Part shown: piece after piece, positions 1,245 through 14,915 of the stretch
Layout of the letters: each line of letters opens with the position of its first letter
How positions within the stretch are numbered: the stretch's first letter is position 1
IMG/VR virus record: IMGVR_UViG_3300043172_001413
Length of the DNA stretch: 17,216 nucleotides
Source of the DNA: a virus
Direction: 5' to 3' (one strand)
Made by a program: the position numbers and the translations under genes
Notes under the pieces: model-generated
The model's database searches: none
Told to the model about the DNA's origin: nothing
Seen by the model: only the letters and a program-made list of their open reading frames with translations

Positions 1245-1601
1245 CTACCAGCCTCTAGCTGGTGGAGATTCTCGTCCTCGCCATGTCGGACTATCGTCGT
1301 CTCCAGATATATAATACCCATCAGAATGAGATCGAGTCAGATCTTTGCAACTATCAGCAATCACAAAAATAATCACCAAAATTCCAAATAAAATCATTAT
1401 GATGGTTAGCGTTGATTCATTGAATACTTCGTCAGTTTTGAATCTTATCCAGTCTATTACTGATCCACCGACTAAAAATAAGATTAAGATGACGAAAACC
1501 CAGAATATAAACTCAATCTTTAGATTTCTTGCTAGAAAGTACAACATAACGAAGATGCCTCCACACAACACTACACCCAGAAGCCAAACTAGTCTCTTCA
1601 T
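1245..1601 (-). CDS. Small membrane protein (2-3 predicted TM helices)
   Basis: Long hydrophobic stretches (LVWLLGVVLCGGIFVMLYFL, IFWVFVILILFLVGG, IIMILFGILVIIFVI); the C-terminal tail may be an over-extension. Confidence 0.4.
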   Translation of the reverse strand: MKRLVWLLGVVLCGGIFVMLYFLARNLKIEFIFWVFVILILFLVGGSVIDWIRFKTDEVFNESTLTIIMILFGILVIIFVIADSCKDLTRSHSDGYYISGDDDSPTWRGRESPPARGW

Positions 1602-1643
1602 CAGCTCACTCTCTTTTCAAGTTCAAAAAGCTGATCTTCACAT

Positions 1644-1925
1644 TTAATCTTCTTCTTTTTTTATCGTCATGGTTCCTTTAACTGCATCAGGAAGACCTTG
1701 AGGGCTGATTGAAATTTCCGTTTGCTGCCAGCTCACGGAATATTTAGTCTCTTCATCCTCATCGAGAAAGTCATCTGTGTCATCTTCATTGTCGTCAACG
1801 TTGGCACTAAAACCACTGGGCCAGCCCCTCCACCAGACTGATAAAAAGAACATTGACGCTAATATAAGGAAGGTTATTAAAAAAGGATGAGTTTCAAAGT
1901 GCTCTAATAGAAGTTCTACGTCCAT
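1644..1925 (-). CDS. Small membrane protein with one TM helix and an acidic (D/E-rich) segment
   Basis: FLITFLILASMFFLSVWW TM segment followed by DDNEDDTDDFLDEDEE; overlaps the 73-aa gene by 32 nt, so the true start may be further downstream. Confidence 0.4.
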   Translation of the reverse strand: MDVELLLEHFETHPFLITFLILASMFFLSVWWRGWPSGFSANVDDNEDDTDDFLDEDEETKYSVSWQQTEISISPQGLPDAVKGTMTIKKEED

Positions 1926-2115
1926 TATTTTTTATTTCCTTTTTTACTAATGTTATGATTCCTCTGGCTGCAGGAATCCAGTTAAGCAAGGATTTTGCTA
2001 TATATTCACTGCGTTTCATACCGGCTACTTTTCTTCTTTTCTCCTGTGTGCCGGCCCAGTACTGTGTAGCGAGTATTCGAGCTATTCTTTTTTCTAATTC
2101 AAATTCTTTAGACAT
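1894..2115 (-). CDS. Small basic helical protein, 73 aa, translationally coupled to the E1 gene
   Basis: ATG at 2115 overlaps the E1 stop (2108) by 8 nt; Lys/Arg-rich. Confidence 0.35.
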   Translation of the reverse strand: MSKEFELEKRIARILATQYWAGTQEKRRKVAGMKRSEYIAKSLLNWIPAARGIITLVKKEIKNNGRRTSIRAL

Positions 2116-2755
2116 GAAATTCGTTAATTTTCAGATCCTTGAGAGTGATAAAGTAATTCTTTTTTGTACCATCGTTAAGATATTTAATTATAGTCTCAGA
2201 AGCAACCGCTACTGATAAAAGAATCACATTTCGGGCCAGCGGGTACTCACAAACATCGAGACCCTTCGGTTCCCCCGGTACCGTGTAAAATTCGTTCCAG
2301 ATAACTTCCGCGTAGTCTTTAAATAGCCCTACGTGCAGACAATCCAATTGATTTTCTTTACAATAATTATATAGTAACCCACGACTCTTTGATTCATCAA
2401 AAGAATCAATAACAATCTCGAAATTGGGCTTCTTTAAAATCTTTCCTATATTGTTTTCGGAGAGTTCTTTTGGTAATGAATTGAGAATAGTACCGGTTGA
2501 ATTATATATTTTTGTTTTCATTCTCTCAGTTTTTAAACCGCCAACATCAAGACGGTCCCATATTTGGGTGCCTTTATTGTGGTCTTCGACGCGGTCTTTA
2601 TCGACAGTAGATAGAGTTTTAAAGCCCTGCCGCGCCATATTATCGATGAGATTTGAACCAATGGCACCACATCCAGCAAACATTATACGTACCGCAGCCA
2701 TTTTCGTTAATAGTTTTTCCGTCCGGTATTCCTGTTCATGAGTGAATAAATCCAT
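2108..2755 (-). CDS. Minimal E1-like ThiF/MoeB-family adenylyltransferase (ubiquitin-activating-like)
   Basis: Rossmann nucleotide motif VRIMFAGCGAIGSNLIDNMARQGF followed by TLSTVDKDRVEDHNKGTQ, matching the ThiF/MoeB GxGxxG...D.D.VE.sN..RQ pattern; candidate catalytic Cys in LDVCEYP; sits 3 nt downstream of the JAB gene. Confidence 0.75.
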   Translation of the reverse strand: MDLFTHEQEYRTEKLLTKMAAVRIMFAGCGAIGSNLIDNMARQGFKTLSTVDKDRVEDHNKGTQIWDRLDVGGLKTERMKTKIYNSTGTILNSLPKELSENNIGKILKKPNFEIVIDSFDESKSRGLLYNYCKENQLDCLHVGLFKDYAEVIWNEFYTVPGEPKGLDVCEYPLARNVILLSVAVASETIIKYLNDGTKKNYFITLKDLKINEFHV

Positions 2756-2758
2756 AGT

Positions 2759-3157
2759 TTATCCGATCTTTATTCTGATGAAATGCCCTATTTTTTTGAA
2801 TGATACTTCATGGCATTCTACTTTTTTTTCTACTCTTCCGTAGATATACATTTTTTGTCTACCATTACCTTCTATACCGCATATGAGCGGTTTGCCCAAA
2901 GCTTTGACCCAACCTATCATTGTTGTGTCATCGATAGCAGACGGTGAAGGAGAGCCTCCTGGATGAGTATGGCTAAATCCTAAAATTTTTTTAGCATTTC
3001 GGACAACTTTTTTCCAGTTAAAATCAACGGAACCAGGATTACCCTCGGATTCATAAATAAAAACACCATATAGATATTCTCCCCATTTATATCCATAGAT
3101 GATCCAGCAATTTTCATTGAAAATTCTGTCTATCAATTTATCCGCCCTGTCTATCAA
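2759..3157 (-). CDS. JAB/MPN (JAMM) metalloprotease, 132 aa
   Basis: Exact JAMM signature E...FSHTHPGGSPSPSAIDD (HxHx7Sx2D) with the upstream Glu in VFIYESEGN; the annotated start is a TTG preceded by AAGGCGG. Confidence 0.8.
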   Translation of the reverse strand: MIDRADKLIDRIFNENCWIIYGYKWGEYLYGVFIYESEGNPGSVDFNWKKVVRNAKKILGFSHTHPGGSPSPSAIDDTTMIGWVKALGKPLICGIEGNGRQKMYIYGRVEKKVECHEVSFKKIGHFIRIKIG

Positions 3158-3167
3158 TTTATCCGCC
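3126..3167. repeat. Perfect 21-nt tandem duplication (ctgtctatcaatttatccgcc x2) covering the SD/start region of the JAB gene
   Basis: Direct repeat read in the sequence; on the minus strand it duplicates GGCGGATAAATTGATAGACAG, i.e. RBS-like GGCGG plus TTG start plus IDR codons. Confidence 0.7.
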
Positions 3168-3283
3168 TTGTTTCAGTAAAATGAGAATAACAGCTATGAA
3201 TAGTAAAATGATAAAGGGTAAAACCCTATTTTTAGAAAGAGTAAAAACAACAAAAAATAAGGTGTCTTTAAAAATATTTTTCT

Positions 3284-4144
3284 TCATAATGCCCTGCTTA
3301 TCTGGCCGGACCGCTGCCCTTCTTGAATAACAGAGATGAGACTCTTTAAATCAAAATCTTTATCACCCTCTCTGCCTGTGCCATGGTCAGTCAGACATAT
3401 CCCAGCAGTTATAACCCAATGTGCCGGATCTTTGGAAATAACTGAGTTGAATGTGTGCCCGTCTACTTCATAGGTAACAAAGAGATGGTCTGAGCGTTCC
3501 TTGCTTTCTATAAATTTTCCACCGGCATATTCTACGTCTCTCTGTATGTTTCCTTTTTTCTTTTCATCAGCAATTTTTTTATCAAGTTTATATTTAATGC
3601 TGTAAGCAATTTTTTCCTCAAGGGTTAAGCCGAAATGTTTTATCCTTCCCGGTGTTCTCAATTTTTTTATGGATTCCCTGAGGTAATCCGTCCGGATCGG
3701 ATCACCTGACATGTCTATGGAATCAAACCACAGGTTTGCACCGTCATATCTGCATATGCATTTAGCGAAGTCCTCTGCTGTATCGTCGAACAGGAATATC
3801 GGCAATAAATCGTTAACTTTGAAGTTCCAGTTATTGCTTTTCATGGGGACTCCGAAATACGCTTTCTTTTTCTTAAACACCAAAATCAGTCGTACTTTAG
3901 GTAAAAAGTTAAGATACCTCTGAATTTTATCTATGTCTGCGGGTGAGGTAACTTTTGCCCTTTTGTTATTGATAGCTTTAAAAGAATACCAACCCGGATC
4001 GGTTTTCGGTATCTCAAGACGGTAGATAATACCTTCGATCCGGGTGATGATCTCTCGATTATAAAAGATGGGAGAGATGATTTCCTTTTCAGTTATCATC
4101 TCCTCCTGCACTCCTATTCTATCAATTGTATCAAGAATGTTCAT
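3284..4144 (-). CDS. 286-aa protein whose C-terminus resembles a UBC/E2 active site (HWVITAGICLTDH versus E2 HPNI...G.ICLD); N-terminal ~200 aa unassigned
   Basis: ATG overlaps the stop of the upstream vWA gene (ATGA); motif similarity only, with a short tail after the Cys, so the E2 assignment is tentative. Confidence 0.5.
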   Translation of the reverse strand: MNILDTIDRIGVQEEMITEKEIISPIFYNREIITRIEGIIYRLEIPKTDPGWYSFKAINNKRAKVTSPADIDKIQRYLNFLPKVRLILVFKKKKAYFGVPMKSNNWNFKVNDLLPIFLFDDTAEDFAKCICRYDGANLWFDSIDMSGDPIRTDYLRESIKKLRTPGRIKHFGLTLEEKIAYSIKYKLDKKIADEKKKGNIQRDVEYAGGKFIESKERSDHLFVTYEVDGHTFNSVISKDPAHWVITAGICLTDHGTGREGDKDFDLKSLISVIQEGQRSGQISRAL

Positions 4145-5715
4145 GCTGCTTTTTTCTTTTTGCCGAAGTCTTTTCTCTTGGGAAGTGGTGTGTCCATGAT
4201 CTCATATAGAAGATCAAGTTTTGACTTCCGTGATAGTAAAGGTATAAGACCAGGTAATGCATAATAATCATCACCTTCAGGCTCGTAATAATCAAATGCA
4301 ATTTTAGCCAGTTTTAAACTCTGGCTGAGTTTTTTATTACCCCAATTAGTCTTCATGTATATAATGGTAATAGTAGGAGTAATGTTGTGCCTCAGTTCAT
4401 ACTTTTTAAAGGTATCAGCGAACCAAGGATCAGTATTCTCATCTTCATCAGTGATAATAACGATTTGTTCAACACAACGCCCTTTTCTCATAAGGAAATC
4501 CAAAGCTGAGCCAATGGATGTTCCGCCGTGAGCGTGCAACGGTTTGAAAGCTCTCTCCCAGGCAGACATACCAGTTTCGCCTTCTTCTGCAACAATCTCA
4601 CGCGCTGCTGTATCGAAAGCCACTACAATTAAATTAGCTTCAGTGGCTCCTGAGACGAGAGAAGAGACGCTTTTACCCACTTCGAGAGCTGTTTGCATAG
4701 ACCCACTTTTGTCGATAAAGATGGCAGTATCAACTTTTATGACACCTCTTTTCTTTATTTGGGTGTCTGCAATTTCCTCCAGAATTTTGACACTATTCTC
4801 ATCCTTGACTCTACCGGTTTTTACTGCTTGTTTTGACTTCAATGCAGAGACACTCTTTGATTTCTTTGCCTTTTCGAGTTTCTCTGTAATGAGTTTTTTG
4901 GTGTCCTCATTTTTCATCGCACCTTTTTCTTCAAGAGAAGCATAGTTGTTTATAACTTCCTGAGGAGACATGGCATTGATCAGAGCAACCAGAATTGATG
5001 GAGTAACTTTCTCAACCAATCCAACAGCGACGGTGTAAGGAATTTTGTTCTCTACAATCAGTCGTGCAACTTTTGCAGGGCTTTTCGTATCTGCTATCTG
5101 CTGAAAAACATTAAGCTTGCTGTCTTCAGGGTATTTGCTCTTGAAGAGAATCTCTTCAGCACGGTTGCTTGGTGCAATATGAAGAGTTGCATAGAGCCCT
5201 TTCAGATCATTTTTGTTTCTGATAACAATTGAATCAAAGATATCAGTTTCGGTTTCAATGTAATTTAAGAAAGCTCTGATATCATTTCTGAAAGATGTCG
5301 GTATATTCTTGAAGAGGCCTACAGTTTTTTCCTCTATAGTTATTTCATCGACTTTTCTCTTGCCTTTGAGAATTTTCTTCCCTGTTTTCCTTCTCAGCTT
5401 TATTTTCTTTCCTTTAACAAAGCCGACAACTTTCCTTTTCAGGAATGTAGGTAGATCTCTGAATAGAGCAAGACCAACTTCACGGTTTTCATGGTACGTA
5501 TCACATACAAGCGCTCCTACGAACACTTCTTTATGATCGCGTATATCTCCATTTTTGAAATACCATGCCGCCAGATGTGAGTAAAAGACTGGGTCGATTT
5601 TTTGCAGTTCCAGGTGCACATCTTTGAGTTTGTCAGTATCCCGGTGAGGGCAGCTTAAAAAGGAATTCAACATTCCGACTCTGACATCCTGTTCGTTTTC
5701 TCTAACTCTGTTCAT
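4141..5715 (-). CDS. 524-aa protein with a C-terminal von Willebrand factor A (vWA, MIDAS) domain, an alpha-helical N-terminal half and a lysine-rich basic linker; architecture resembles Ro60/Rsr (TROVE + vWA)
   Basis: MIDAS motif AIFIDKSGSMQ...(T)...VIITDEDEN; basic stretch KGKKIKLRRKTGKKILKGKRK; AAWYFKNG resembles Ro60 ADWYNEKG but the motifs are not colinear with Ro60, so TROVE is unproven; strong GGAGG SD. Confidence 0.8.
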   Translation of the reverse strand: MNRVRENEQDVRVGMLNSFLSCPHRDTDKLKDVHLELQKIDPVFYSHLAAWYFKNGDIRDHKEVFVGALVCDTYHENREVGLALFRDLPTFLKRKVVGFVKGKKIKLRRKTGKKILKGKRKVDEITIEEKTVGLFKNIPTSFRNDIRAFLNYIETETDIFDSIVIRNKNDLKGLYATLHIAPSNRAEEILFKSKYPEDSKLNVFQQIADTKSPAKVARLIVENKIPYTVAVGLVEKVTPSILVALINAMSPQEVINNYASLEEKGAMKNEDTKKLITEKLEKAKKSKSVSALKSKQAVKTGRVKDENSVKILEEIADTQIKKRGVIKVDTAIFIDKSGSMQTALEVGKSVSSLVSGATEANLIVVAFDTAAREIVAEEGETGMSAWERAFKPLHAHGGTSIGSALDFLMRKGRCVEQIVIITDEDENTDPWFADTFKKYELRHNITPTITIIYMKTNWGNKKLSQSLKLAKIAFDYYEPEGDDYYALPGLIPLLSRKSKLDLLYEIMDTPLPKRKDFGKKKKAA

Positions 5716-5747
5716 TCAATTTTCCTCCTTTTTGGTTAGAATGAATC

Positions 5748-6005
5748 TCAGGTACCGAAAGTCGCATTCGGTCTTACAGTAATATCACCTGACTTGTGGA
5801 ACTCAACAATCAGTTCGTTGAATTCATCTACCGGCTTGTCGAAATGATTTGCCAGGGCTCTTTTGATCTGGTCTCCGTTCAGATCTTTTGACTGAAGCTC
5901 AGCATCGTCTTCGATACCAAGACCAGCTCTGTCATCCACTGGGATAAGATCATCAAGATCAATATCCTCAGTTCTGCCATCATAAACGATGTGTACAGCG
6001 TCCAT
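5748..6005 (-). CDS. Small acidic protein with a beta-grasp-like N-terminus (candidate ubiquitin-like modifier), first gene of the operon; ends ...ATFGT
   Basis: MDAVHIVYDGRTEDIDL resembles the first beta-hairpin of ubiquitin (MQIFVKTLTGKTITLEV); AGGAGGAG SD; lies upstream of E2-like, JAB and E1 genes as in Ubl-E2-JAB-E1 operons; single C-terminal Gly followed by Thr. Confidence 0.45.
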   Translation of the reverse strand: MDAVHIVYDGRTEDIDLDDLIPVDDRAGLGIEDDAELQSKDLNGDQIKRALANHFDKPVDEFNELIVEFHKSGDITVRPNATFGT

Positions 6006-6043
6006 TATGACTCCTCCTGTTAAAGTAAAAAGTGTCCTCAGTT

Positions 6044-6074
6044 TATTATACCCATTTTCAACTGAGATTGTTCA
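6044..6074 (-). promoter_or_regulatory. Candidate sigma70-type promoter for the minus-strand operon (-35 TTGAAC, 19-nt spacer, -10 TATAAT)
   Basis: Minus-strand TATAAT at 6049..6044 and TTGAAC at 6074..6069; the spacer is 2 nt longer than optimal. Confidence 0.3.
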
Positions 6075-6194
6075 AGAAAATCACACTTTATTAATGATAC
6101 TGGTTTTTAGCTGTTAATTTAAACTAAAAAATGGTAATAATATAATTTTTTTCTGGGTCAAAGTAAAAAAAAATTAAAATAGTGAAAATAAGTG

Positions 6195-6223
6195 TTGACA
6201 GAACTTCTTTTTAGTGGTATATT
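6195..6223 (+). promoter_or_regulatory. Strong sigma70-type promoter: TTGACA, 17 nt, TG-n-TATATT (extended -10)
   Basis: TTGACA 6195..6200, spacer gaacttctttttagtgg, TATATT 6218..6223 with TG at 6215..6216; drives the plus-strand RNA cluster. Confidence 0.6.
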
Positions 6224-6258
6224 ATTCTTCGTAGAGTCTCTGCGCCCAAATTTATCGG

Positions 6259-6266
6259 GCGTACAT
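6259..6266 (+). promoter_or_regulatory. GCNTACAT motif copy A (gcgTACAT), 2 nt before tRNA-Val
   Basis: One of seven copies of (G)GCNTACAT-W, each immediately 5' of an RNA gene. Confidence 0.4.
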
Positions 6267-6268
6267 TT

Positions 6269-6343
6269 GAAGATATAGCTCAGTGGTAGAGCGATCATTT
6301 TACAGATGATAAGTCCCTGGCTCGAAACCAGGTTTCTTCACCA
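6269..6343 (+). tRNA. tRNA-Val (anticodon UAC), encoded CCA
   Basis: Cloverleaf folded by eye: acceptor GAAGATA/TTTCTTC (one T.T mismatch), D-arm GCTC-AGTGGTA-GAGC, anticodon stem ATCAT/ATGAT with loop TTTACAG, 5-nt variable loop, T-arm CCTGG-CTCGAAA-CCAGG (unusual C54), discriminator A, CCA. Confidence 0.75.
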
Positions 6344-6407
6344 AATCAGCACGATTAACTTGCGCAGGACTTTCTTTGAAATTATAGCAGAAAACCTAAC
6401 GGTAGAT

Positions 6408-6415
6408 GCTTACAT
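6408..6415 (+). promoter_or_regulatory. GCNTACAT motif copy B (gctTACAT)
   Basis: Motif copy preceding structured RNA B. Confidence 0.35.
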
Positions 6416-6524
6416 AACGTGAAGTCGAAAGACTTCCAGCCCCTCCACCTGCTCACAATCGGTAAGTGAGTTAGTGGTGGGGCTGGATTATCCCGGTTCG
6501 CCGGGAAGCACCTCAAACTTTTTT
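6416..6524 (+). ncRNA. Structured ncRNA B (~110 nt): GAAA-tetraloop hairpin, 12-bp GC-rich stem enclosing an inner hairpin, UUCG-tetraloop hairpin, then T6; boundaries approximate
   Basis: GAAGTC-GAAA-GACTTC (6421..6436); CCAGCCCCtCCAC/GTGGtGGGGCTGG (6436..6448 with 6474..6486) around CTCAC-AATCGGTAA-GTGAG; TCCCGG-TTCG-CCGGGA (6491..6506); T-run 6519..6524. Confidence 0.45.
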
Positions 6525-6567
6525 CTGCTTATTATAAATCGTAAATGGGCAACATCAGACATTGAGG

Positions 6568-6575
6568 GCTTACAT
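6568..6575 (+). promoter_or_regulatory. GCNTACAT motif copy C (gctTACAT)
   Basis: Motif copy preceding structured RNA C. Confidence 0.35.
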
Positions 6576-6671
6576 TAATTTTTAGGAATTAATCGTCCCC
6601 TGTAGAGTCAGGGGGCAAACCTCGGGGAAACCCGGGGAAAGCACTTAAGACTTGGTTGCTCATTTTTTTTT
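6576..6671 (+). ncRNA. Structured ncRNA C (~95 nt) ending in a T9 run: CCCCTG-TAGAGT-CAGGGG hairpin and a 7-bp GAAA-tetraloop hairpin; probable end of the first transcription unit
   Basis: Hairpins at 6597..6614 and 6620..6637; T9 at 6663..6671 preceded by only a weak AGCA/TGCT stem; boundaries approximate. Confidence 0.4.
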
Positions 6672-6676
6672 GGTCT

Positions 6677-6704
6677 TTGAAATTTTAATGTCACAACCTA
6701 ATTT
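6677..6704 (+). promoter_or_regulatory. Candidate promoter for tRNA-like D: -35 TTGAAA, 16 nt, -10 TAATTT; predicted start at the GCGTACAT motif
   Basis: TTGAAA 6677..6682; TAATTT 6699..6704; the -10 ends exactly 8 nt before TACAT, the same geometry as units E and F. Confidence 0.35.
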
Positions 6705-6709
6705 TTAAT

Positions 6710-6717
6710 GCGTACAT
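6710..6717 (+). promoter_or_regulatory. GCNTACAT motif copy D (gcgTACAT), abutting tRNA-like D
   Basis: The last T of TACAT is position 1 of the tRNA-like gene. Confidence 0.4.
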
Positions 6718-6790
6718 TATCGATAGCTCAGTGTAGAGCGCAAGAACGCTAATCTTGATGTCGTAGGCTCGAAACCTACTCGATGAACCA
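6717..6790 (+). tRNA. tRNA-like gene (74 nt with CCA) with an atypical anticodon loop ACGCUAA (C33; nominal anticodon GCU) and a short variable loop; identity and function uncertain
   Basis: Acceptor TTATCGA/TCGATGA (one G.U), D-arm GCTC-AGTGTA-GAGC, anticodon stem CAAGA/TCTTG, variable loop ATGTC, T-arm GTAGG-CTCGAAA-CCTAC (C54 again), discriminator A + CCA; a GCU anticodon without a long variable arm is not a normal tRNA-Ser. Confidence 0.6.
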
Positions 6791-6877
6791 AACAAAGCAT
6801 TTTCAACTTTTGTGACATTTATTATAAAATTTGTTCTTTGAAAAATGGGATCTGATATTTTTAATTGGCACATTTCC

Positions 6878-6896
6878 TAACTTTGGGAGCCTACAT
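6878..6896 (+). promoter_or_regulatory. -10-like TAACTT (6878..6883) plus GCNTACAT motif copy E (gccTACAT, 6889..6896)
   Basis: Same 8-nt gap between the -10-like hexamer and TACAT as in units D and F; no -35 at optimal spacing (TTGAAA lies 34 nt upstream). Confidence 0.3.
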
Positions 6897-7007
6897 TAGT
6901 TAATTTGGAGGTTCAATTCCTCCTCCCGGCACCACAAGTGCTTGATTTTCAAGTGCTTCTGATGCCGGGATGGCCAAATTGGTAAAGGCGACTGTCTTCA
7001 GAACAGT
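6897..7007 (+). ncRNA. Circularly permuted tRNA-like module: T-arm, acceptor 3' strand, ACCA, 29-nt linker hairpin, acceptor 5' strand, D-arm, complete anticodon arm with UCA
   Basis: GGAGG-TTCAATT-CCTCC (6907..6923), TCCCGGC-A-CCA (6924..6934), linker CAAGTGCTTGATTTTCAAGTGCTTCTGAT (imperfect inverted repeat), GCCGGGA (6964..6970, perfect complement of 6924..6930), TG, GCC-AAATTGGTAAA-GGC, G, ACTGT-CTTCAGA-ACAGT (6991..7007; U33, anticodon UCA, R37). Confidence 0.5.
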
Positions 7008-7067
7008 TTTAAAAAACTTGTTAACCTGCTCTTTTAACTTGAATGTGTCAATTTAAAATATCGGTCT

Positions 7068-7095
7068 TTGAAAAAAAAGGCATTTCACCTAATCT
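7068..7095 (+). promoter_or_regulatory. Candidate promoter for RNA F: -35 TTGAAA, 16 nt, -10 TAATCT
   Basis: TTGAAA 7068..7073; TAATCT 7090..7095; 8 nt upstream of TACAT (7104), matching the unit D geometry. Confidence 0.35.
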
Positions 7096-7100
7096 TTGGA

Positions 7101-7108
7101 GCCTACAT
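7101..7108 (+). promoter_or_regulatory. GCNTACAT motif copy F (gccTACAT)
   Basis: Motif copy preceding structured RNA F. Confidence 0.35.
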
Positions 7109-7227
7109 AAAAAATTCCGGTTCGACTCCGGGTTTCCCCGCCTGACAGACTTTAATAGGTCTACCAGGCGGGGAAACTAGCCGTGTGGATGGCATCAGAT
7201 AGTGAATCTGACAAAATAAATTTTTGT
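7109..7227 (+). ncRNA. Structured ncRNA F: T-arm-like hairpin (TCCGG-TTCGACT-CCGGG) followed by a perfect 13-bp hairpin and a 6-bp hairpin; 3' boundary uncertain
   Basis: 7116..7132 T-arm-like with canonical TTCGANT loop; GTTTCCCCGCCTG (7132..7144) / CAGGCGGGGAAAC (7165..7177) perfect inverted repeat with inner AGAC/GTCT; TCAGAT-AGTGA-ATCTGA 7195..7210. Confidence 0.3.
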
Positions 7228-7258
7228 TACTGCTCTTTTAACTTTGAAATGCTCTTTT

Positions 7259-7266
7259 AAATACAT
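7259..7266 (+). promoter_or_regulatory. Degenerate motif copy G (aaaTACAT)
   Basis: TACAT conserved but the upstream GC is replaced; precedes the last structured segment. Confidence 0.25.
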
Positions 7267-7392
7267 AGGATTGGGTGGTTACTCACCGAGTAATCTTTAT
7301 TTGGTTTGCCCAGCCCTCTCCTCAGAGTTACCTAGTTGGGCAATTAGCCGTAAGCCGGGAAGATTTTTCTTTAACTTCCCGGCTTATTTTTT
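7267..7392 (+). ncRNA. Structured RNA segment G (hairpins GGTTACTC-ACC-GAGTAATC and TTGCCCA...TGGGCAA) ending in the cluster terminator
   Basis: Inverted repeats read in the sequence; may be a 3' UTR-like tail of the F transcript rather than a separate RNA. Confidence 0.3.
7352..7392 (+). terminator. Rho-independent terminator: perfect 11-bp stem AAGCCGGGAAG/CTTCCCGGCTT, 12-nt loop, then ATTTTTT
   Basis: Inverted repeat 7352..7362 / 7375..7385 followed by T6 at 7387..7392; closes the RNA cluster 13 nt before the next CDS. Confidence 0.7.
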
Positions 7393-7404
7393 GTACCATT
7401 AAAT

Positions 7405-10050
7405 ATGAAATGTCCTATCTGTGGTAATTCCTATTTCTCTGATTTCTTGAAATGCCCCGCCTATAAAATCTGTCTCATCTGTAATTTATGCTGCCAAGAA
7501 ACTTTACCGGAAAAAGTATATGAAGGACTGGAAGAAAATGATGGGAAAGGTCCCGGTACAGGCCATGAAATGTCAAATGAAGAAAAATCTATTAATACAA
7601 ATCTCGCTAATTCCCTCTATCATATGTATCTTCCCCGGACTGTCCTGGATATCGGATCCAAATATCCTATTTTTCTCCATACTTTAAAAGACCGTGCAGA
7701 AGTACTGGGAATTGACGGTATCCCTGAAATTATTAAATATGGTGAGGAACTCGGTGTCCCGGTTATTAACACTGACTTTGAATCCATAGACATTACACCA
7801 TATAAGAATAAATTTGACCTGATAACCGTCATACATACCTTTGAGCATTTTTATAATCCATTTGAGACTCTAAAAAAGATTTTGGAGTGTCTGAGTTCTC
7901 GGGGAGTTCTCTATATGCGTATCCCGAATATGGACGTATCAGGCATTGACCGGGATTTTACTAAGCATCATTTAACGATCCACCCCTTTATTTATTCCAC
8001 GCAAGCTATGTATATGTTGAGTGAAAAACTGGGTTATGAGATATTCAGGATTGATGACCAGGGAGGGTACGGGCAGAGTGATTTTTTCTTCAGGAAAAGA
8101 AAGGATAAATTCACCCTTTCAGTATGTATGATTGTGAAAAATGAAGAAAAGAATATAACTGATTGTCTTGAGAGTATTAAAGACGTGGCAGATGAATTTG
8201 TGATCGTTGATACTGGATCTACGGATAGAACGAAAGAGGTGGTCTCAAAATACACCTCTAACATCTATGATTTCAAATGGATAGATGATTTTTCTGCTGC
8301 CCGGAATTTTTCTTTGAGTAAGGCTACCGGTGATTTTGTGCTCTGGCTCGATGCAGATGATATTGTAGAGAATCCAGAAGCTATTTTACCCTTGCTGAAG
8401 GAAAGTTTTGATGCCCATGATTTCAATATTATATATGGGAATGATAATTTCAGCCAGGCACGGTTGTTCCGAAATTTCAGAAATATCCGTTTTGCCGGCC
8501 GCGTGCATGAATACCCTGTGTTGGATGGTCTGTTTTTAGAGATTCAAACGGATTTACCCACACCACAACGGGTTATTTCTCATCAGCGGGAGACAAGAGT
8601 AAATGTGTATCATAAGACAGAGAAACACAGTACTGAGGACAGGTCAGAGAGAAACTACCGCATTTTAAAAAAAGAATTGGAAGAGGATCCAGATAATTCA
8701 CGGACTCTCTTTTATCTGGGTAACGTTTTGAAAGAATTAAAAAGTTATGATGAAGCTATTGAAACATACCGGAAATATCTGAAGGTTTCAACTTGGGTTG
8801 ATGAGAAATGGATGGCTCAAAAATATATAGGCTGTATACTTCTATGGCAGGGATATTATAAAGAAGCGATAGAGGAATTTAAAGGGGCTATTGAGATAGA
8901 TAATAGATGGGCAGAATCCTATTATTATATAGGGGAATGTCTTTTTTTATTAAAAGATTACGATGGATGTATTGATTGGATGTTGAAAGCTGTGGAGAAA
9001 AAGCCCCCTTTCTCACCCCTGTGGAAAGAAACATCTGTTTATCAGGATGCACCCTATCGTTATATTTTTGCTGTCTATGATGTAAAAGGAGATTACAAGA
9101 AAGCTATTCATTATTGTAAGAGAGCCTGCGAGAAAAAACCCGGGAATGAATGGCTTGAAGGCAGGTTATTACACTTTGAAAGTCTTCTTGGGGGCGATTT
9201 ACGCGTAATAGAGTGTTTCAGGCAGGGAGCACTGGGAGACTGTTTAATGACAACTGCAGCTCTGCGAGGTCTGAAAGAGAAAGATCCTGGATGTTTTATT
9301 CGATATGTAACGCATCCTCATAGTATGCAAATTCTTGAAGGTAATAAATATATCGATGAATTGGTTTCAGAATCAAAAGAAGAACATGCGCAGAAGATTT
9401 ACTTTTCCTATCCGGACAAGGACTCTCCGTTGGAGGATGAAGGGTATCCTGATAAACCTTTGAGCAGGCATTTGATAAAAATTTTCAATGAATGTGCTGG
9501 GTTACCTGATAATAGTATGGAAATGGAGTGTACTCTTTCTGAGAAAGAGGAAAATGTGGGTCGATCATTACGCCGTCAGTATAAGAAATATTTAACATTG
9601 CATGTTAAATCTGGATGGTCCGCTTATAAAGATTGGTATAATGACCGGTGGAGACTTGTTGTTGAAAAATTATTTCAAAGAGGTTATGTGACCGTACAAA
9701 TAGGTCACAAGGAGGATTTTTTATTAAGAAATACTGTTGATTTCCGGGGTCATACGATAAAAGAAGTTTTGTCTGCTATTAAATATGCTGATGTTCACAT
9801 GGGTATTGATAGTTTCACTAATCATGTTTCTGCGACGTTTTTTGCCCCTTCAGTGATTTTATTTGGTAGTACTTCACCTATAGGGTCAGGTTATGACCAG
9901 AACATAAATATTTACAAGGACTTGCCGTGTCAGCCCTGTTATCGGGAATATAAAAGTAAAGATCCGTGTCCATGTGGGAAGAAATGTATGAGTTTGATCA
10001 CGGTTGATGAGGTTCTGAAGAGCGTTATTAAACTTCTGGAAGAAAGATGA
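7405..10050 (+). CDS. 881-aa multidomain enzyme: N-terminal Cys-rich zinc ribbon, class I SAM methyltransferase, GT2 glycosyltransferase, TPR repeats, C-terminal GT9 (heptosyltransferase-like) glycosyltransferase
   Basis: CPICG...CPAYKICLICNLCC; VLDIGSK...FDLITVIHTFEHFYNP (methyltransferase motifs); LSVCMIVKNEE...VIVDTGSTD...WLDADD (GT2 DxD); TPR-like helices in the YLGNVLKELKSYDEAIETYRKYL region; GALGDCLMTT...HMGIDSFTNHVSATFFAPSVILFGSTSP (GT9 signature). Confidence 0.85.
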   Translation: MKCPICGNSYFSDFLKCPAYKICLICNLCCQETLPEKVYEGLEENDGKGPGTGHEMSNEEKSINTNLANSLYHMYLPRTVLDIGSKYPIFLHTLKDRAEVLGIDGIPEIIKYGEELGVPVINTDFESIDITPYKNKFDLITVIHTFEHFYNPFETLKKILECLSSRGVLYMRIPNMDVSGIDRDFTKHHLTIHPFIYSTQAMYMLSEKLGYEIFRIDDQGGYGQSDFFFRKRKDKFTLSVCMIVKNEEKNITDCLESIKDVADEFVIVDTGSTDRTKEVVSKYTSNIYDFKWIDDFSAARNFSLSKATGDFVLWLDADDIVENPEAILPLLKESFDAHDFNIIYGNDNFSQARLFRNFRNIRFAGRVHEYPVLDGLFLEIQTDLPTPQRVISHQRETRVNVYHKTEKHSTEDRSERNYRILKKELEEDPDNSRTLFYLGNVLKELKSYDEAIETYRKYLKVSTWVDEKWMAQKYIGCILLWQGYYKEAIEEFKGAIEIDNRWAESYYYIGECLFLLKDYDGCIDWMLKAVEKKPPFSPLWKETSVYQDAPYRYIFAVYDVKGDYKKAIHYCKRACEKKPGNEWLEGRLLHFESLLGGDLRVIECFRQGALGDCLMTTAALRGLKEKDPGCFIRYVTHPHSMQILEGNKYIDELVSESKEEHAQKIYFSYPDKDSPLEDEGYPDKPLSRHLIKIFNECAGLPDNSMEMECTLSEKEENVGRSLRRQYKKYLTLHVKSGWSAYKDWYNDRWRLVVEKLFQRGYVTVQIGHKEDFLLRNTVDFRGHTIKEVLSAIKYADVHMGIDSFTNHVSATFFAPSVILFGSTSPIGSGYDQNINIYKDLPCQPCYREYKSKDPCPCGKKCMSLITVDEVLKSVIKLLEER

Positions 10051-10400: not shown

Positions 10401-11021
10401 TTAACTCTTATTTGCTACATAGGCTAAGCACGAATTCTTAGCTTCAATAATCTTAATAAAATCGTTTGCATTTCCACCTTTGTCCGGATGATATATTAAA
10501 GATAATTTTCTAAATGCTGTTTTAATACTATTTTCAGTAGCTTCAGATGTTAATCCCAACTTCTCGAAGGATTTAACTGGTGTAGGTATCGAAGCTTGTA
10601 TAAAAAAATTAGCAAAACGGTTAAACATATTATCAAAAGTACCAAAAGAACTAAAAGAACTAAAACTCTGCCACTCATAAAATCTTTGATTCTCTTCGCG
10701 CTGTTTATAATAAGCTGTTTCTTTCTTTTTAAGATAATCTCCAAACAATTCGTTTTTGACTTTAATAATTACAGTAGCATAAAAATATTTCCAAAGGCTT
10801 TCAGGTAAACCTTTTCCTTTAGCTTTGTTTGAAATACCATCGAATTTTTGCCTGATTTCCTTAATTACTATTTTAAAGCGATTATAATTAAAATTATTAG
10901 TTGATGCGAGGTATTCGATAACAGCCATAAAATCTGCGGTTAGATCGACTATGAAATTATTATGATTAAATTGCTCTTGAACGTCCAACTTATACTTTTT
11001 GATATATTCTTTTGGTTTCAT
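10401..11021 (-). CDS. J-domain (DnaJ-like) protein with a C-terminal J-domain, 206 aa
   Basis: LGLTSEATENSIKTAFRKLSLIYHPDKGG contains the diagnostic HPD tripeptide in J-domain helix II/III context; GAGGAG SD. Confidence 0.7.
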   Translation of the reverse strand: MKPKEYIKKYKLDVQEQFNHNNFIVDLTADFMAVIEYLASTNNFNYNRFKIVIKEIRQKFDGISNKAKGKGLPESLWKYFYATVIIKVKNELFGDYLKKKETAYYKQREENQRFYEWQSFSSFSSFGTFDNMFNRFANFFIQASIPTPVKSFEKLGLTSEATENSIKTAFRKLSLIYHPDKGGNANDFIKIIEAKNSCLAYVANKS

Positions 11022-11207: not shown

Positions 11208-14200
11208 ATGTCAAAGACCAAAAGAAAATGGATCTGTGGTGTTGGTGATTTACCTGATACCACTCAGAATTACAACGCTTTTCAAGCCTTACGTGCAGAA
11301 GACATTCCATACGATCCGACTCTAAGTATTAAAGATGCTATAGAATCTGGGCTGACCGGTGTTCAGGGGCCCACTGGAGCCACGGGTACTGGTATCCAGG
11401 GCGAGACAGGAGTCGCGGGTATTTATGGAGAAACGGGTGTACAGGGTCAAACTGGAATAGGAATTCAGGGAGAAACAGGTGTTGAAGGAATACAAGGTCA
11501 AACCGGAGCTTCGGGTGGTGGAGAAACAGGAATTCAGGGAGAAACAGGTGTTGAAGGAATACAAGGTCAAACCGGAGCTTCGGGTGGTGGAGAAACAGGG
11601 ATTCAGGGAGAAACAGGTGTTCAAGGAATTGCCGGACAAACCGGAGCTCTGGGGGGTGGAGACACAGGAGTCCAGGGCGAAACGGGTATCCAGGGAATTG
11701 CCGGACAAACTGGTGCGGGTATCCAGGGTCAGACGGGTGCTGGTATCCAGGGTCAAACAGGTATTCAAGGAGAGACTGGTGCTGGTACTCAGGGCGAAAC
11801 GGGTATCCAGGGAACGCAGGGTTCACAGGGCGAAACGGGTATTCAGGGCTATACAGGAGTCCAGGGAGAGACAGGAGTTCAGGGAACACAGGGAGAGACA
11901 GGAGTTCAGGGAACACAGGGCGAGACAGGAGTTCAGGGTGAGACCGGTACTGGTATCCAGGGAGAAACGGGTGTCGCTGGAGTAGCAGGAGAGACAGGAG
12001 TTCAGGGAGATCAGGGCGAGACAGGAGTAGCAGGAGTCGCAGGAGAGACGGGTGTCCAGGGAACACAGGGAGAGACAGGAGTACAGGGTCAGACGGGTGC
12101 TGGTATCCAGGGCGAGACAGGAGTTCAGGGAACACAGGGCGAGACAGGAGTTCAGGGTGAGACCGGTACTGGTATCCAGGGCGAAACGGGTGTCCAGGGA
12201 ACACAGGGCGAGACAGGAGTTCAGGGTGAGACCGGTACTGGTATTCAGGGCGAGACAGGAGTTCAGGGAGATCAGGGAGAGACAGGAGTACAGGGTGAGA
12301 TAGGTGAAACGGGTGTCCAAGGTGATATTGGTCCTCAAGGTCCAAGAGGAGACCAGGGGGAGACCGGAGTCCAGGGAATTCAAGGTATCCAAGGAACTAC
12401 AGGGGTCCAAGGTATCCAGGGTGTCACCGGGGTTCAGGGAGAAACAGGAATCCAGGGAACCCAGGGTAATCAAGGTGAAACAGGAGTTGAAGGTATACAG
12501 GGAGACACAGGTATAGCAGGTGTAGCTGGTGTCACGGGGACCCAAGGCTCACAGGGAGTAACAGGAGTTGAGGGTACACAGGGAGACACAGGTGCAGGTC
12601 TTCAAGGTGTTACGGGTATCCAAGGGATCCAAGGCCAGACAGGTGTACAGGGAGAGACCGGTATAGAGGGTGAAACTGGAATAGAGGGCTCTCAGTTTGT
12701 CGGTTTTATGTATAATGCTTTAACAAATAGTCAATCGGATACAGATCCAGGGACAGGGAAATTAAAATGGAGTACTGTTGGTCAGACAAATGCTGCTGAA
12801 TTATATGTAGATGATGAGGATAAAAACTCTATAGATTATAGTTCACTTTATATCACTTTAAAAAATAGTGATGTTATTCGTGTCCAGCGTCAGGAAAATC
12901 CCAAACAATTTCAAATTTTTAAAATAGATGCTGTTGTTGATAGAACAGGATGGTTTCGTTTTGAAGTTTCTTTTATTGTAAGTGGAGGTTCTGTTTTTAG
13001 TCTTAATGATAATCTTATTTTGATTTTTGAGATTTCTGGACCGCAGGGAGAGACAGGAGTAGCAGGAGAGACAGGAGTTCAGGGAGACACAGGTGTAGCA
13101 GGTGTAGCGGGGGAGACCGGAGTCCAGGGAGTTCAGGGTATCCAGGGTAATCAGGGCGAGACAGGAGTTCAGGGAGACACAGGAGCGGGAGTAGCCGGAG
13201 AGACAGGAGTTCAGGGAGACACAGGTATAGGTGTAGCGGGGGAGACCGGAGTCCAGGGAGTTCAGGGAGAGACAGGAGTAGCAGGAGAGACAGGAGTTCA
13301 GGGGACTCAGGGAGAGACAGGAGTACAGGGTCAGACGGGTGCTGGTATCCAGGGGGAGACCGGAGTTCAGGGAACACAAGGAGAGACTGGTTCTCAGGGT
13401 CAGACGGGTGCTGGTATCCAGGGCGAGACAGGAGTTCAGGGGACTCAGGGAGAGACTGGTTCTCAGGGTCAGACTGGTGCTGGTATCCAGGGCGAGACAG
13501 GAGTTCAGGGTACACAGGGAGAGACAGGTTCTCAGGGTCAGACTGGTGCTGGTATCCAGGGAGAGACAGGAGTTCAGGGTACACAGGGAGAGACAGGTTC
13601 TCAGGGTCAGACGGGTGCTGGTATCCAGGGAGAGACAGGAATTCAGGGTCAGACGGGTATTCAAGGAGTCACGGGAGAAACTGGAGTCGGTATCCAGGGA
13701 GAGACAGGAGTTCAGGGAACACAGGGAGAGACAGGAGTCCAGGGTCAGACTGGTGCTGGTATCCAGGGAGAAACAGGAATTCAGGGAACACAGGGAGTAA
13801 CAGGAGCTGGGATTCAAGGAGAGACAGGAGTTCAGGGAGCACAGGGCGATACAGGAGTTCAGGGAGCACAGGGCGAGACAGGAGTTCAGGGTCAGACGGG
13901 CGAGACAGGAGTTCAGGGCGAGACAGGAGTCGCGGGTGTAGCAGGAGAGACAGGAGTTGCGGGTATTCAGGGAGAGACCGGAAGTCAGGGTCAGACGGGT
14001 GTTCAGGGAGACACAGGTATAGCAGGTATAGCGGGGGAGACCGGAGTCCAGGGTAATCAGGGTATCCAGGGTAATCAGGGAGAGACAGGAGTTCAGGGTA
14101 CACAGGGAGAGACAGGTTCTCAGGGTCAGACGGGTGCTGGTATCCAGGGAGAGACAGGAATTCAGGGTCAGACGGGTATTCAAGGAGTCACGGGTATCCA

Positions 14201-14900
14201 GGGTGAGACAGGAGCGGGTGTAGCAGGAGAGACAGGAGTTCAAGGAGACACTGGTATAGGATCGTTTATTCAAATAGACCCTAATAATATAAATAGATAC
14301 GAAGTTGCAGACGGAGGTGGTGAAGAAGTATGGATTGTTTCAAGCTCAGCTACTTATTTATTAGTGCCCTGGACAAGAGCCAGTACAAGTTTAACAATTA
14401 CTCGAGCAGGACATGGCCATGTTACAGGAAATAGAATTATTGTCAGAAATTCTAATGTTGAATATCAGTCCACGCTTATAACATCATATAATGCAAATGA
14501 TTTTACAGTAACTACTGTAGATTCAGGAGCAACATCAGGCTCATCGGCGACCTATTTATTAGGTTTTTCTTTTAGTCATACCGGCATGCCTAAAACAGGT
14601 GGAACTTTAAGTGCTCCTATAGGAGATCATGCCGATGTGCAGCTTTTATCTATGAGGGTTCGTACTGGACCGAGAGCGGGTACAACTTATGACTTGGTAG
14701 TTCCGGCAAGTTCTCTTAATGGTGCAGGGGATAATACAAGTCTTGCGGATTGCTATATCCCTGATTTTAATGTTAGAACAGATTCTAATTCATTAGCTGC
14801 CATAGCAGCTACTATAGCCACAAATATCGGCGGTTCTTATACAACATTTAGATTTGGTAATTTAGGGTCGCTATCAAGATTTATTATACTCCAATTTTAA
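11208..14900 (+). CDS. Proline-free collagen-like (G-X-Y) fibre protein, 1230 aa: N-terminal head, collagen-like region 1 (~11340..12690), globular insert (~12691..13035), collagen-like region 2 (~13036..14265), C-terminal globular domain (~14266..14897); probable tail-fibre or surface-fibre protein
   Basis: AGGAG SD 6 nt before the ATG; hundreds of GETGVQG/GTQGETG/GAGIQG triplets with Thr/Gln at Y and no Pro; frequent G-X-G one-residue interruptions; non-repeat domains at both ends. Confidence 0.85.
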   Translation: MSKTKRKWICGVGDLPDTTQNYNAFQALRAEDIPYDPTLSIKDAIESGLTGVQGPTGATGTGIQGETGVAGIYGETGVQGQTGIGIQGETGVEGIQGQTGASGGGETGIQGETGVEGIQGQTGASGGGETGIQGETGVQGIAGQTGALGGGDTGVQGETGIQGIAGQTGAGIQGQTGAGIQGQTGIQGETGAGTQGETGIQGTQGSQGETGIQGYTGVQGETGVQGTQGETGVQGTQGETGVQGETGTGIQGETGVAGVAGETGVQGDQGETGVAGVAGETGVQGTQGETGVQGQTGAGIQGETGVQGTQGETGVQGETGTGIQGETGVQGTQGETGVQGETGTGIQGETGVQGDQGETGVQGEIGETGVQGDIGPQGPRGDQGETGVQGIQGIQGTTGVQGIQGVTGVQGETGIQGTQGNQGETGVEGIQGDTGIAGVAGVTGTQGSQGVTGVEGTQGDTGAGLQGVTGIQGIQGQTGVQGETGIEGETGIEGSQFVGFMYNALTNSQSDTDPGTGKLKWSTVGQTNAAELYVDDEDKNSIDYSSLYITLKNSDVIRVQRQENPKQFQIFKIDAVVDRTGWFRFEVSFIVSGGSVFSLNDNLILIFEISGPQGETGVAGETGVQGDTGVAGVAGETGVQGVQGIQGNQGETGVQGDTGAGVAGETGVQGDTGIGVAGETGVQGVQGETGVAGETGVQGTQGETGVQGQTGAGIQGETGVQGTQGETGSQGQTGAGIQGETGVQGTQGETGSQGQTGAGIQGETGVQGTQGETGSQGQTGAGIQGETGVQGTQGETGSQGQTGAGIQGETGIQGQTGIQGVTGETGVGIQGETGVQGTQGETGVQGQTGAGIQGETGIQGTQGVTGAGIQGETGVQGAQGDTGVQGAQGETGVQGQTGETGVQGETGVAGVAGETGVAGIQGETGSQGQTGVQGDTGIAGIAGETGVQGNQGIQGNQGETGVQGTQGETGSQGQTGAGIQGETGIQGQTGIQGVTGIQGETGAGVAGETGVQGDTGIGSFIQIDPNNINRYEVADGGGEEVWIVSSSATYLLVPWTRASTSLTITRAGHGHVTGNRIIVRNSNVEYQSTLITSYNANDFTVTTVDSGATSGSSATYLLGFSFSHTGMPKTGGTLSAPIGDHADVQLLSMRVRTGPRAGTTYDLVVPASSLNGAGDNTSLADCYIPDFNVRTDSNSLAAIAATIATNIGGSYTTFRFGNLGSLSRFIILQF
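13338..13682 (+). repeat. Five near-identical tandem copies of a 69-nt (23-aa GAGIQGETGVQGTQGETGSQGQT) unit inside fibre gene 1
   Basis: GGTGCTGGTATCCAGG recurs at 13338, 13407, 13476, 13545 and 13614 (period 69) with only synonymous or near-synonymous differences. Confidence 0.8.
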
Positions 14901-14915
14901 TGGTTTGGAAATAAA

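Follow-up and report, generated by a model that had tools for sequence, protein, structure and literature searches.

Introduction

The conservation of Ro60 and Y RNAs extends from bacteria to humans, yet their functions are only partly understood. To our knowledge, ubiquitin-like conjugation in prokaryotes has so far been tied to defence, namely to Bil and to the cyclic-oligonucleotide-based antiphage signalling systems (CBASS). Here we describe a locus in which relatives of both occur side by side. It lies on the minus strand at positions 1245-6005 of IMG/VR virus record IMGVR_UViG_3300043172_001413, a stretch of 17,216 nucleotides (nt) that was analysed as a whole and is termed the window below. 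In our judgement the chances are about even that this locus is a copy of a conserved module coupling a Ro60-like ribonucleoprotein (RNP) to a minimal ubiquitin-like (Ubl) conjugation cascade.

The closest described RNPs are those of Rsr and YrlA, the latter being encoded beside Ro60 and having a published T-AS-D layout (T, acceptor-like stem-loop, D) (PMC4201824); the Rsr/Y RNA/PNPase machine is one of them. The module shares with them a protein of about 500 amino acids (aa) with a helical TROVE-type region and a vWA domain with its metal ion-dependent adhesion site (MIDAS), adjacent non-coding RNAs with a terminal stem and a tRNA-like domain, some copies of which are permuted into the T-AS-D order, and an occurrence in phages and bacteria, often near RNA-repair genes. 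It departs from them in that the window protein is very divergent and has no Pfam TROVE match, the stem motif of the RNAs is not GNCGAA, the RNAs come in arrays with some complete normal or permuted tRNA cores, and the module is locked to a Ubl/E1/E2 cascade, with JAB in part of the loci, that is reported for no Ro60 locus in the literature searched.

On the conjugation side, the nearest operons are of the Ubl-E2-JAB-E1 type (class 6d of Iyer et al. 2006; BilABCD), which likewise combine a Gly-ending Ubl, a separate E2-like Cys protein, a JAB protease and a ThiF-type E1 without an E3. Unlike them, the module belongs to none of their families, its E2-like domain is fused to two OB (oligonucleotide-binding) folds and lacks HPN, its E1 is minimal (215 aa), a Ro60-like protein and RNA genes are part of its core, and it is carried by huge phages and bacteria. 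CBASS type II shares the E1 and JAB chemistry, with weak matches to the Cap2 and Cap3 models, but the module has no CD-NTase and no E1-E2 fusion, and its Ubl is free. The sulfur carrier systems (ThiS/ThiF, MoaD/MoeB, TtuB/TtuC with JAMM) also use a minimal ThiF-like E1, a small Gly-terminated partner and an optional JAB and have a link to tRNA, whereas the module is without sulfur-mobilising or PP-loop enzymes and has a UBC-like Cys domain and a single C-terminal Gly.

A classification of prokaryotic E1/E2/JAB operons holds no TROVE class (PMC1779556), a jumbo-phage survey reports TROVE proteins in a few phages with no Ubl link (PMC7824862), and ubiquitin goes unmentioned in the huge-phage paper. 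Nidhogg viruses of Asgard archaea are reported to carry Ro60 (TROVE plus vWA) and three ThiF/E1-like proteins, which are listed separately and unlinked (Rambo et al. preprint, 10.1101/2021.07.29.454249); compared by published description only, they are alike in having Ro60 and ThiF/E1-like proteins in viral genomes. No description of the module turned up in the searchable literature when TROVE or Ro60 was combined with ThiF, JAB or ubiquitin-like proteins. Its parts are known in kind: the ThiF E1 and the JAB are members of their families, the Ro60/TROVE protein is a divergent relative, the UBC superfold a weak likeness, and the RNAs resemble Y RNAs in architecture only, with a terminal stem and a tRNA-like domain beside a Ro60-like gene. 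Within that literature, what is new is the combination of a Ro60-like RNP, RNA arrays and a Ubl cascade.

A Conserved Gene Order from Huge Phages to Bacteria

The initial annotation had described a Ubl/E2-like/JAB/E1 cassette of eight co-oriented minus-strand open reading frames (ORFs); all eight lie where it placed them (window 1245-6005), and as a frame the cassette is right, with its E1 and JAB solid. In order of transcription, the core consists of a Ubl-precursor-like protein of 85 aa (5748-6005, C-terminus ...VRPNATFG-T), a divergent Ro60/TROVE-like protein of 524 aa (4141-5715, a helical N-terminal part and a vWA domain with complete MIDAS), an OB-OB-E2-like protein of 286 aa (3284-4144, two N-terminal OB barrels and a C-terminal Cys domain with the invariant C250), a JAB/MPN+ metalloprotease of 132 aa with a TTG start (2759-3157, Pfam Prok-JAB) and a minimal E1, that is, a ThiF/MoeB-type adenylating enzyme of 215 aa (2108-2755, Pfam ThiF). 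Translational coupling had been claimed for the genes, with ATGA overlaps and gaps of 3-8 nt. The TROVE stop and the E2 start do share an ATGA, so that the genes overlap, and JAB and E1 are 3 nt apart; other gaps are wider, with 32 nt between the Ubl gene and the 524-aa gene and 126 nt between E2 and JAB. The latter gap is occupied by a coupled hydrophobic ORF of 42 aa (3159-3287, minus strand), called in loci L001 and L002, which belong to the same phage, and not seen at that position in other loci, so it is lineage-specific.

With the window proteins as queries against all loci collected, 19 related loci were found in IMG/VR on contigs of 32-470 kb, and the sole GenBank phage with module genes is a 595-kb uncultured huge phage. 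Because the related loci sit on such large phage contigs and carry tRNA arrays, tmRNA, RNA and DNA ligases, PARP and sigma factors, we regard the window as huge-phage DNA. A giant-virus origin, which collagen-like genes in the window had suggested, was rejected, the related contigs being IMG/VR phage with tRNA arrays, tmRNA and bacterial-type operons.

Ubl, TROVE, OB-E2, JAB and E1 follow one another in a single order on one strand in each of the 17 distinct huge-phage loci that are long enough to show them. The exceptions are a JAB undetected in L024 and a Ubl below detection in L022-L025, which are among the most divergent loci. This order persists where the 286-aa protein retains 26-33% identity and where genes are inserted between the parts; the five-gene arrangement is far from chance. 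Co-occurrence in related genomes was a check that the initial annotation had itself proposed, and the five core genes do recur there in the same order. The basic 73-aa protein (1894-2115), the 93-aa protein with one transmembrane segment (1644-1925) and the 118-aa protein with about three (1245-1601), all on the minus strand, lie outside this conserved module: their homologues were found only in L001/L002 among the loci searched, and they drop out as the membrane and small partners that they had been taken for. The 118-aa ORF has a weak holin-like PHROG match (E 0.004), and the 85-, 286-, 73- and 93-aa proteins gave zero family matches in Pfam, NCBIfam, PADLOC and PHROGs.

A scan of one genome per species, seeded with the TROVE profile, revealed 355 relatives. 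The majority come from filamentous cyanobacteria, some of them on complete chromosomes of Calothrix, Leptolyngbya, Phormidium and Capilliphycus; other carriers are Planctomycetia, Chthonomonadaceae, Anaerolineae, Acidobacteriota and KSB1. In many of the 355, the Ubl lies 0.3-8 kb upstream of TROVE, and downstream, without a change of strand, OB-E2 is followed directly by E1. The Planctomycete, Anaerolineae and KSB1 versions include JAB, which the cyanobacterial ones lack. In a Leptolyngbya locus (L107), an HNH endonuclease and an eight-tRNA array are followed by Ubl, a scaffolded tRNA-like RNA, endonuclease V, TROVE, a small vWA protein, OB-E2 and E1. There, the HNH gene and the array precede the module and endonuclease V stands between Ubl and TROVE (5589-9345), an arrangement that resembles the mobile "L-array" tRNA operons of Anabaena, which are linked to translational stress (PMC8421152). 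In four divergent phage loci, a tmRNA gene lies shortly downstream of E1 (L016 17051-17399, L018 18967-19367, L023 10686-11097, L025 16222-16621), and in L016 it starts 61 nt past the E1 stop.

In cyanobacteria several kilobases and unrelated genes may separate the parts, and in many bacterial loci Ubl and TROVE are the only parts visible within 10 kb. Such spacing would suit two independent systems travelling together, a Ro60/Y-RNA surveillance unit and a separate Ubl cascade, yet we find this very unlikely, because the TROVE gene stands between Ubl and E2 and overlaps E2 in phages, order and strand are constant from phages to cyanobacteria to Planctomycetes, and no gene keeps nearer to the RNA array and TROVE than that of the Ubl, a part of the cascade.

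A Divergent Relative of Ro60

The 524-aa protein had been viewed as an accessory vWA adaptor embedded in the cassette. Judged from its sequence profile, it is instead a divergent Ro60/TROVE relative and a core member of the module rather than an insert, being as conserved as E1 and E2, and this likeness makes it a predicted RNA-binding protein. The Pfam VWA_2 model gave 20.4 bits, below its cut-off of 27. Profile comparison with hhalign against human and Xenopus Ro60 and Deinococcus Rsr, whose sequences were checked against PDB, gave a probability of 96.4%, and with a 99-sequence alignment 97.3% (E 1.9e-11) over 312 collinear columns. Residues 139-456 align to Ro60 145-503 with about 20% identity, and the aligned part spans about 200 residues of the helical TROVE region together with the vWA domain. 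The Pfam model vWA_Ro60 (PF25045) is matched by 8 of 32 family members (best E 1.4e-5), and the best PDB profile match of the family is a TROVE-domain protein (9l5y/9kop), which is weak (E 0.13) but collinear. The MIDAS residues D335-x-S337-x-S339, T399 and D423 are all invariant in the family. Two bacterial loci encode further proteins of these kinds: in L107 (Leptolyngbya), TROVE and OB-E2 are separated by another vWA protein, which is small and stands alone (11476-11934), and L081 has a second TROVE paralogue (13410-15062).

Ubl, JAB and E1

Of the conjugation enzymes, the E1 is the clearest. Pfam ThiF matches the 215-aa protein at 68.2 bits against a cut-off of 28.1 (E 7.6e-19), its best named matches are ThiF and MoeB, and across 17 relatives the GxGxxGS motif (GCGAIGS), RQ, DxD and DxFDN are invariant or nearly so, as is a Cys in C(E/D)YP(L/M)A after the adenylation core. 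Both Pfam and conservation thus bear out the minimal ThiF/MoeB E1 with GCGAIGS...RQ of the initial annotation. Its exact HxHx7Sx2D signature for the JAB is likewise present, as HTHPGGSPSPSAID, with an invariant Glu upstream; the match to Pfam Prok-JAB reaches 29.1 bits (cut-off 25), and E...HTHP...S..D is invariant in 16 relatives.

The C-terminus of the 85-aa family consists of a strand-like (I/L)T(V/L)RP, four residues and an invariant aromatic-Gly, the Gly (G84 in the window protein) being preceded by F, Y or W. Beyond it there is an unconserved tail of 0-4 residues, some members stopping exactly at the Gly, so that aromatic-Gly is the sole invariant C-terminal feature. An invariant Gly with a short variable tail is an ending of the Ubl-precursor type. 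Among the loci with both E2 and E1 in view, a JAB gene stands beside every tailed Ubl (11/11), and the Ubl stops at the Gly in every locus without JAB (15/15), the remaining seven loci having JAB and no tail and none having a tail without JAB (Fisher p=1.7e-4). Since the tail occurs only alongside JAB, we tie JAB to the C-terminal processing of the Ubl, and together with the E1 this link makes the reading of the 85-aa protein as a putative Ubl precursor, by its C-terminal hallmark, the most economical one. As far as its hydrophobic pattern goes, the family is compatible with beta-beta-alpha-beta-beta.

An E2-Like Domain Fused to OB Folds

The C-terminal domain of the 286-aa protein has the predicted order helix, four strands, Cys loop and helix. 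Its nearest folds are UBC, RWD and UEV, with weak structural similarity, and the two OB folds that precede it were absent from the initial annotation. The protein has 79 close homologues, all of them metagenomic and on contigs of up to 512 kb, and a profile search of the full library returned 674 representatives of the E2-like Cys domain, nearly all of about 280 aa with the same architecture. The Cys, C250, lies after strand 4 in an AGICL motif that is conserved across relatives, and it is invariant in 39 close and 63 divergent members. Across the latter, only G248, C250, D261 and D265 are invariant.

The UBC-like H-x5-G-ICL-D motif of the initial annotation stands in part. The invariant Cys and the weak UBC-superfold neighbours support it, but its His (H242) is not invariant, the HPN motif is absent from the family, and UQ_con and Prok-E2_A-E of Pfam found no match in 102 members. 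An hhalign comparison of the Cys domain with UBE2D2, UBC9, UBC13 and UBE2L3 was not significant at a probability of 0.4%, although its register puts C250 on the catalytic Cys. PDB sequence searches with the Ubl and E2-like families, as single proteins and as profiles, returned chance-level matches only. Our reading of the 286-aa protein is a pair of RNA-binding OB folds joined to an E2-like Cys domain, a fold assignment that is weak. An apparent fusion of an E2-like Cys domain with JAB, P0353 (396 aa, metagenomic), matches the window JAB with a BLASTP E of 2e-10; it was not counted as evidence because its Arg-rich N-terminus looks frame-shifted, and it may be an artefact.

The initial annotation favoured antiviral defence of the Bil/CBASS type, with Ubl conjugated to phage tail or collagen-like fibres. 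The four enzymatic roles are the same, the gene order is similar, E1 and JAB give generic matches to CBASS Cap2/Cap3 models, and collagen-like genes do lie nearby in the window, but we hold this explanation to be highly improbable. The carriers are the 130-595-kb phage genomes themselves, no Bil or CD-NTase family is matched, and the most conserved parts, TROVE and the RNA arrays, have no place in the model. Membership in Bil or Cap2/Cap3 finds no footing in PADLOC and NCBIfam, which gave sub-threshold generic matches for E1 and JAB only and nothing for the Ubl, the E2-like or the 524-aa protein. The module neighbours are lineage-specific and differ each time, in phages and on bacterial chromosomes, so the link to collagen fibres looks coincidental.

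A sulfur-carrier pathway is another explanation that the enzymes bring to mind, in which a ThiS/MoaD/TtuB-like carrier would be thiocarboxylated, the Cys domain would relay persulfide, and thiolation would fall on the tRNA-like RNAs or on tRNAs bound by the Ro60-like ring and the OB folds. The best named matches of the E1 fit this pathway; a minimal E1 with a small Gly-ending partner and JAB resembles known sulfur-transfer operons (PMC1779556), and the constant association with tRNA-like RNAs and the lack of an E3 point the same way. Against this, the conserved set contains no cysteine desulfurase, rhodanese or PP-loop ATPase, the nearest folds of the Cys domain are those of UBC, RWD and UEV, and the C-terminus is aromatic-Gly and not Gly-Gly, which makes a sulfur-carrier pathway distinctly unlikely.

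Scaffolded and Permuted tRNA-Like RNAs

The 1.4-kb stretch at 6006-7404, seemingly empty and passed over by the initial annotation, encodes plus-strand RNAs. Four elements were recognised, and a terminal stem clasps all of them. The first (6237-6370) holds a tRNA-Val UAC core at 6269-6343 found by ARAGORN and Rfam, has a bulged terminal stem and is preceded by a sigma-70-like promoter, TTGACA-17-TATATT, at 6195-6223. The second (6688-6818; core 6717-6787, Rfam tRNA 51.2 bits) has an outer stem of 10 bp, AATGTCACAA/TTGTGACATT, with spacings of 20 and 22 nt to the core. A covariance model (R1), for which 26 such elements were used, matches the first over its full length at 91.2 bits and the second at 100.2 bits.

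The other two elements, identified by folding and a motif scan, are circularly permuted. The one at 6865-7051 has the same scaffold (R1 full-model score 40.1 bits) and runs from the T arm through the acceptor 3' strand with ACCA, a hairpin and the acceptor 5' strand to the D arm and an anticodon-like arm with UCA; the Rfam model of permuted (two-piece) tmRNA matches it in part, at 6907-6971. The one at 7079-7253, with GUG in its anticodon-like loop, has a 13-bp acceptor-like stem with hairpin closure and a 9-bp terminal stem, GGCATTTCA/TGAAATGCT. A descriptor scan for permuted tRNA-like genes gave 33 matches against 2.0 in shuffled sequences. These elements could be mimics of the Y-RNA type or genuine tRNAs that are permuted or in two pieces. 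Permuted elements elsewhere occur in L007, L003 (7929-8073), L014 (7918-8062), L008 (7715-7857), L017 (from 6854), L005 (14112 and 14316) and L018 (16170 and 16369). Between the tRNA-like genes of the window there are also two strongly structured plus-strand segments without an Rfam match (6386-6529 and 6580-6672), of which one contains a hairpin of 9+4 bp rich in GC and the other a pair of hairpins ahead of a T-run.

Stems of 9 bp or more that flank the core at a distance of about 20 nt on either side were found in 20 of 28 module-adjacent tRNA calls against 5 of 49 tRNAs from ordinary arrays of the same loci (p=5e-8). The stem sequences differ between all scaffolded elements; the loop motifs between stem and core, (C)CYAAC on the 5' side and YAACUU on the 3' side, are conserved across phyla, and a covarying inner helix lies between the outer stem and the core. 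The consensus fold from RNAalifold contains both the outer and the inner helix as well as the three tRNA arms, and 26 of its 29 pairs show compensatory changes; the outer stem had been a selection criterion for the alignment, the inner stem had not. R1 matched over its full length 113 times at 70 bits or more, with such matches in 54 of 61 loci and nearly all of them on the module strand within the few kilobases upstream of TROVE, whereas ordinary tRNAs match its core only, at 33-51 bits. A loose scan for the motif pair showed no enrichment (119 matches against about 116 in shuffles) and was superseded by the constrained-distance test and the covariance model. Rfam holds no family for the scaffold and returned only tRNA and tmRNA, with no curated Y RNA-like family at threshold.

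In many cyanobacterial loci, R1 also has scaffold-sized matches of 71-87 nt that span the whole model and lie 70-250 nt upstream of the TROVE start; these scaffold-only copies may represent a candidate autoregulatory site in the 5' untranslated region. Short matches of this kind are seen at L066 9832-9909, L082 9843-9917, L085 9853-9926, L109 9856-9931 and in about 10 other cyanobacterial loci. The anticodons that ARAGORN assigns to scaffolded elements include ones rare in genuine tRNAs, namely Asn-AUU, Ile-AAU, Ile-UAU, SeC-UCA and a 2-nt "anticodon" (L003, L008, L016, L018, L022, L078 and others), and the cyanobacterial copies have one acceptor sequence (ACAUAC/GUAUG) regardless of anticodon. 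From the odd anticodons and the shared acceptor it follows that public genomes probably list scaffolded elements wrongly as tRNAs.

Several cores do pass as ordinary tRNAs in ARAGORN and Rfam, and genuine tRNA arrays lie nearby, so the conserved stems might be mere processing signals for supernumerary tRNAs, for instance RNase III sites, and not binding sites of a Ro60-like protein. We think this unlikely, given that array tRNAs of the same loci are without such stems, the loop motifs CCYAAC and YAACUU are conserved across phyla, and permuted cores and rare anticodon-loop triplets (AUU, AAU, UAU, UCA) are common. The single acceptor sequence of the cyanobacterial copies and the scaffold-only matches just upstream of TROVE also speak against it.

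A Proposed Mechanism

For a module that couples a Ro60-like RNP to Ubl conjugation, we propose the following course. JAB would trim the Ubl tail and expose the Gly, and genomes with a Gly-ending Ubl could dispense with JAB. The E1 would then adenylate this Gly, probably with a thioester on its own invariant Cys, and the Ubl would be handed to Cys250 of the E2-like domain. Meanwhile, a putative Ro60-like ring may hold the conserved stem of the scaffolded RNAs, as their adjacency suggests, and their tRNA-like domains may recruit the OB folds of the E2-like protein, much as Y RNA tethers PNPase, via its KH/S1 domains, to Ro60/Rsr; ring and RNAs would then be a platform on which the E2-like protein is positioned. 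Transfer of the Ubl would thereby be aimed either at the Ro60-like protein or at proteins, such as tRNA-targeting nucleases or modifiers, that bind the tRNA-like baits. Given how often tRNA arrays, tmRNA, RNA ligases and endonuclease V lie nearby, the module may act in tRNA and translation stress, or in a tRNA-centred conflict between phage and host.

A bolder idea, which we consider quite improbable, is that the tRNA-like RNAs themselves select or receive the modification. In one version, the module would be an RNA-programmed Ubl ligase, whose RNA paralogues, each with its own anticodon-like loop, would bait different tRNA-binding proteins, such as an anticodon nuclease or a modification enzyme, to be tagged by the OB-tethered E2. 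In the other, the E1-activated Gly would be esterified to the 3' end of the tRNA-like RNA, by chemistry as in aminoacylation, giving a protein-RNA conjugate.

Several results weigh against coupling of a Ro60-like RNP to a Ubl cascade. Pfam TROVE (PF05731) has no match at E<=1 in the window protein or 32 relatives, and the first 138 residues of that protein are unaligned, so that homology to Ro60 is limited to 139-456; it is for these two reasons that we call the protein divergent. The YrlA motif GNCGAAN0-1G is absent from the scaffold, with one chance match in 17 elements, and it is therefore adjacency that suggests binding of the scaffold RNAs by the TROVE protein. Neither Pfam nor PDB searches connect the putative Ubl with a known Ubl family, and its hhalign comparison with ubiquitin, ThiS, MoaD, Urm1 and SAMP1 was not significant. 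No E3, target or effector could be identified for the module, and the tethering of the OB folds through RNA and the bait idea are analogy, not data. Nevertheless, no rival accounts for the whole gene set as well as a Ro60-like RNP coupled to a Ubl cascade.

Other Genes of the Window

A Trp- and Cys-rich protein of 132 aa with a C-terminal CPDCG zinc-ribbon-like motif is encoded at 676-1074 on the minus strand. At 7405-10050 on the plus strand lies the gene for an 881-aa protein with a Cys-rich N-terminus, a methyltransferase, a GT2 glycosyltransferase, TPR and a GT9-like domain (Pfam on the identical gene of L001), and at 10401-11021 on the minus strand that for a phage-encoded DnaJ-domain protein of 206 aa with an HPD motif. 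A collagen-like protein of 1230 aa (11208-14900, plus strand) consists of G-x-x triplets of the GETGVQG type, interrupted by a non-repeat break of roughly 110 aa and followed by a C-terminal globular domain of roughly 250 aa; in the collagen repeats the G+C content rises from 0.38 to 0.57. A second collagen-like gene (15300-17216, plus strand) runs off the window. The 881-aa protein may glycosylate these collagen-like fibres.

Implications

If the reading of the locus as a Ro60-like RNP coupled to Ubl conjugation is true, the module would connect RNA surveillance with protein tagging in a new way. It is of high interest because it is both widespread and experimentally tractable, ranging over hundreds of bacterial species as well as many huge phages. 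Culturable cyanobacteria are among its carriers, for instance Nostoc sp. LEGE 06077, Aphanothece hegewaldii CCALA 016 and Mastigocoleus testarum BC008. In these systems one could ask what a Ro60-type RNP recruits and how a minimal E1-E2 pair chooses its targets without an E3. A large family of tRNA-like RNAs, scaffolded and circularly permuted, comes with the module as well.

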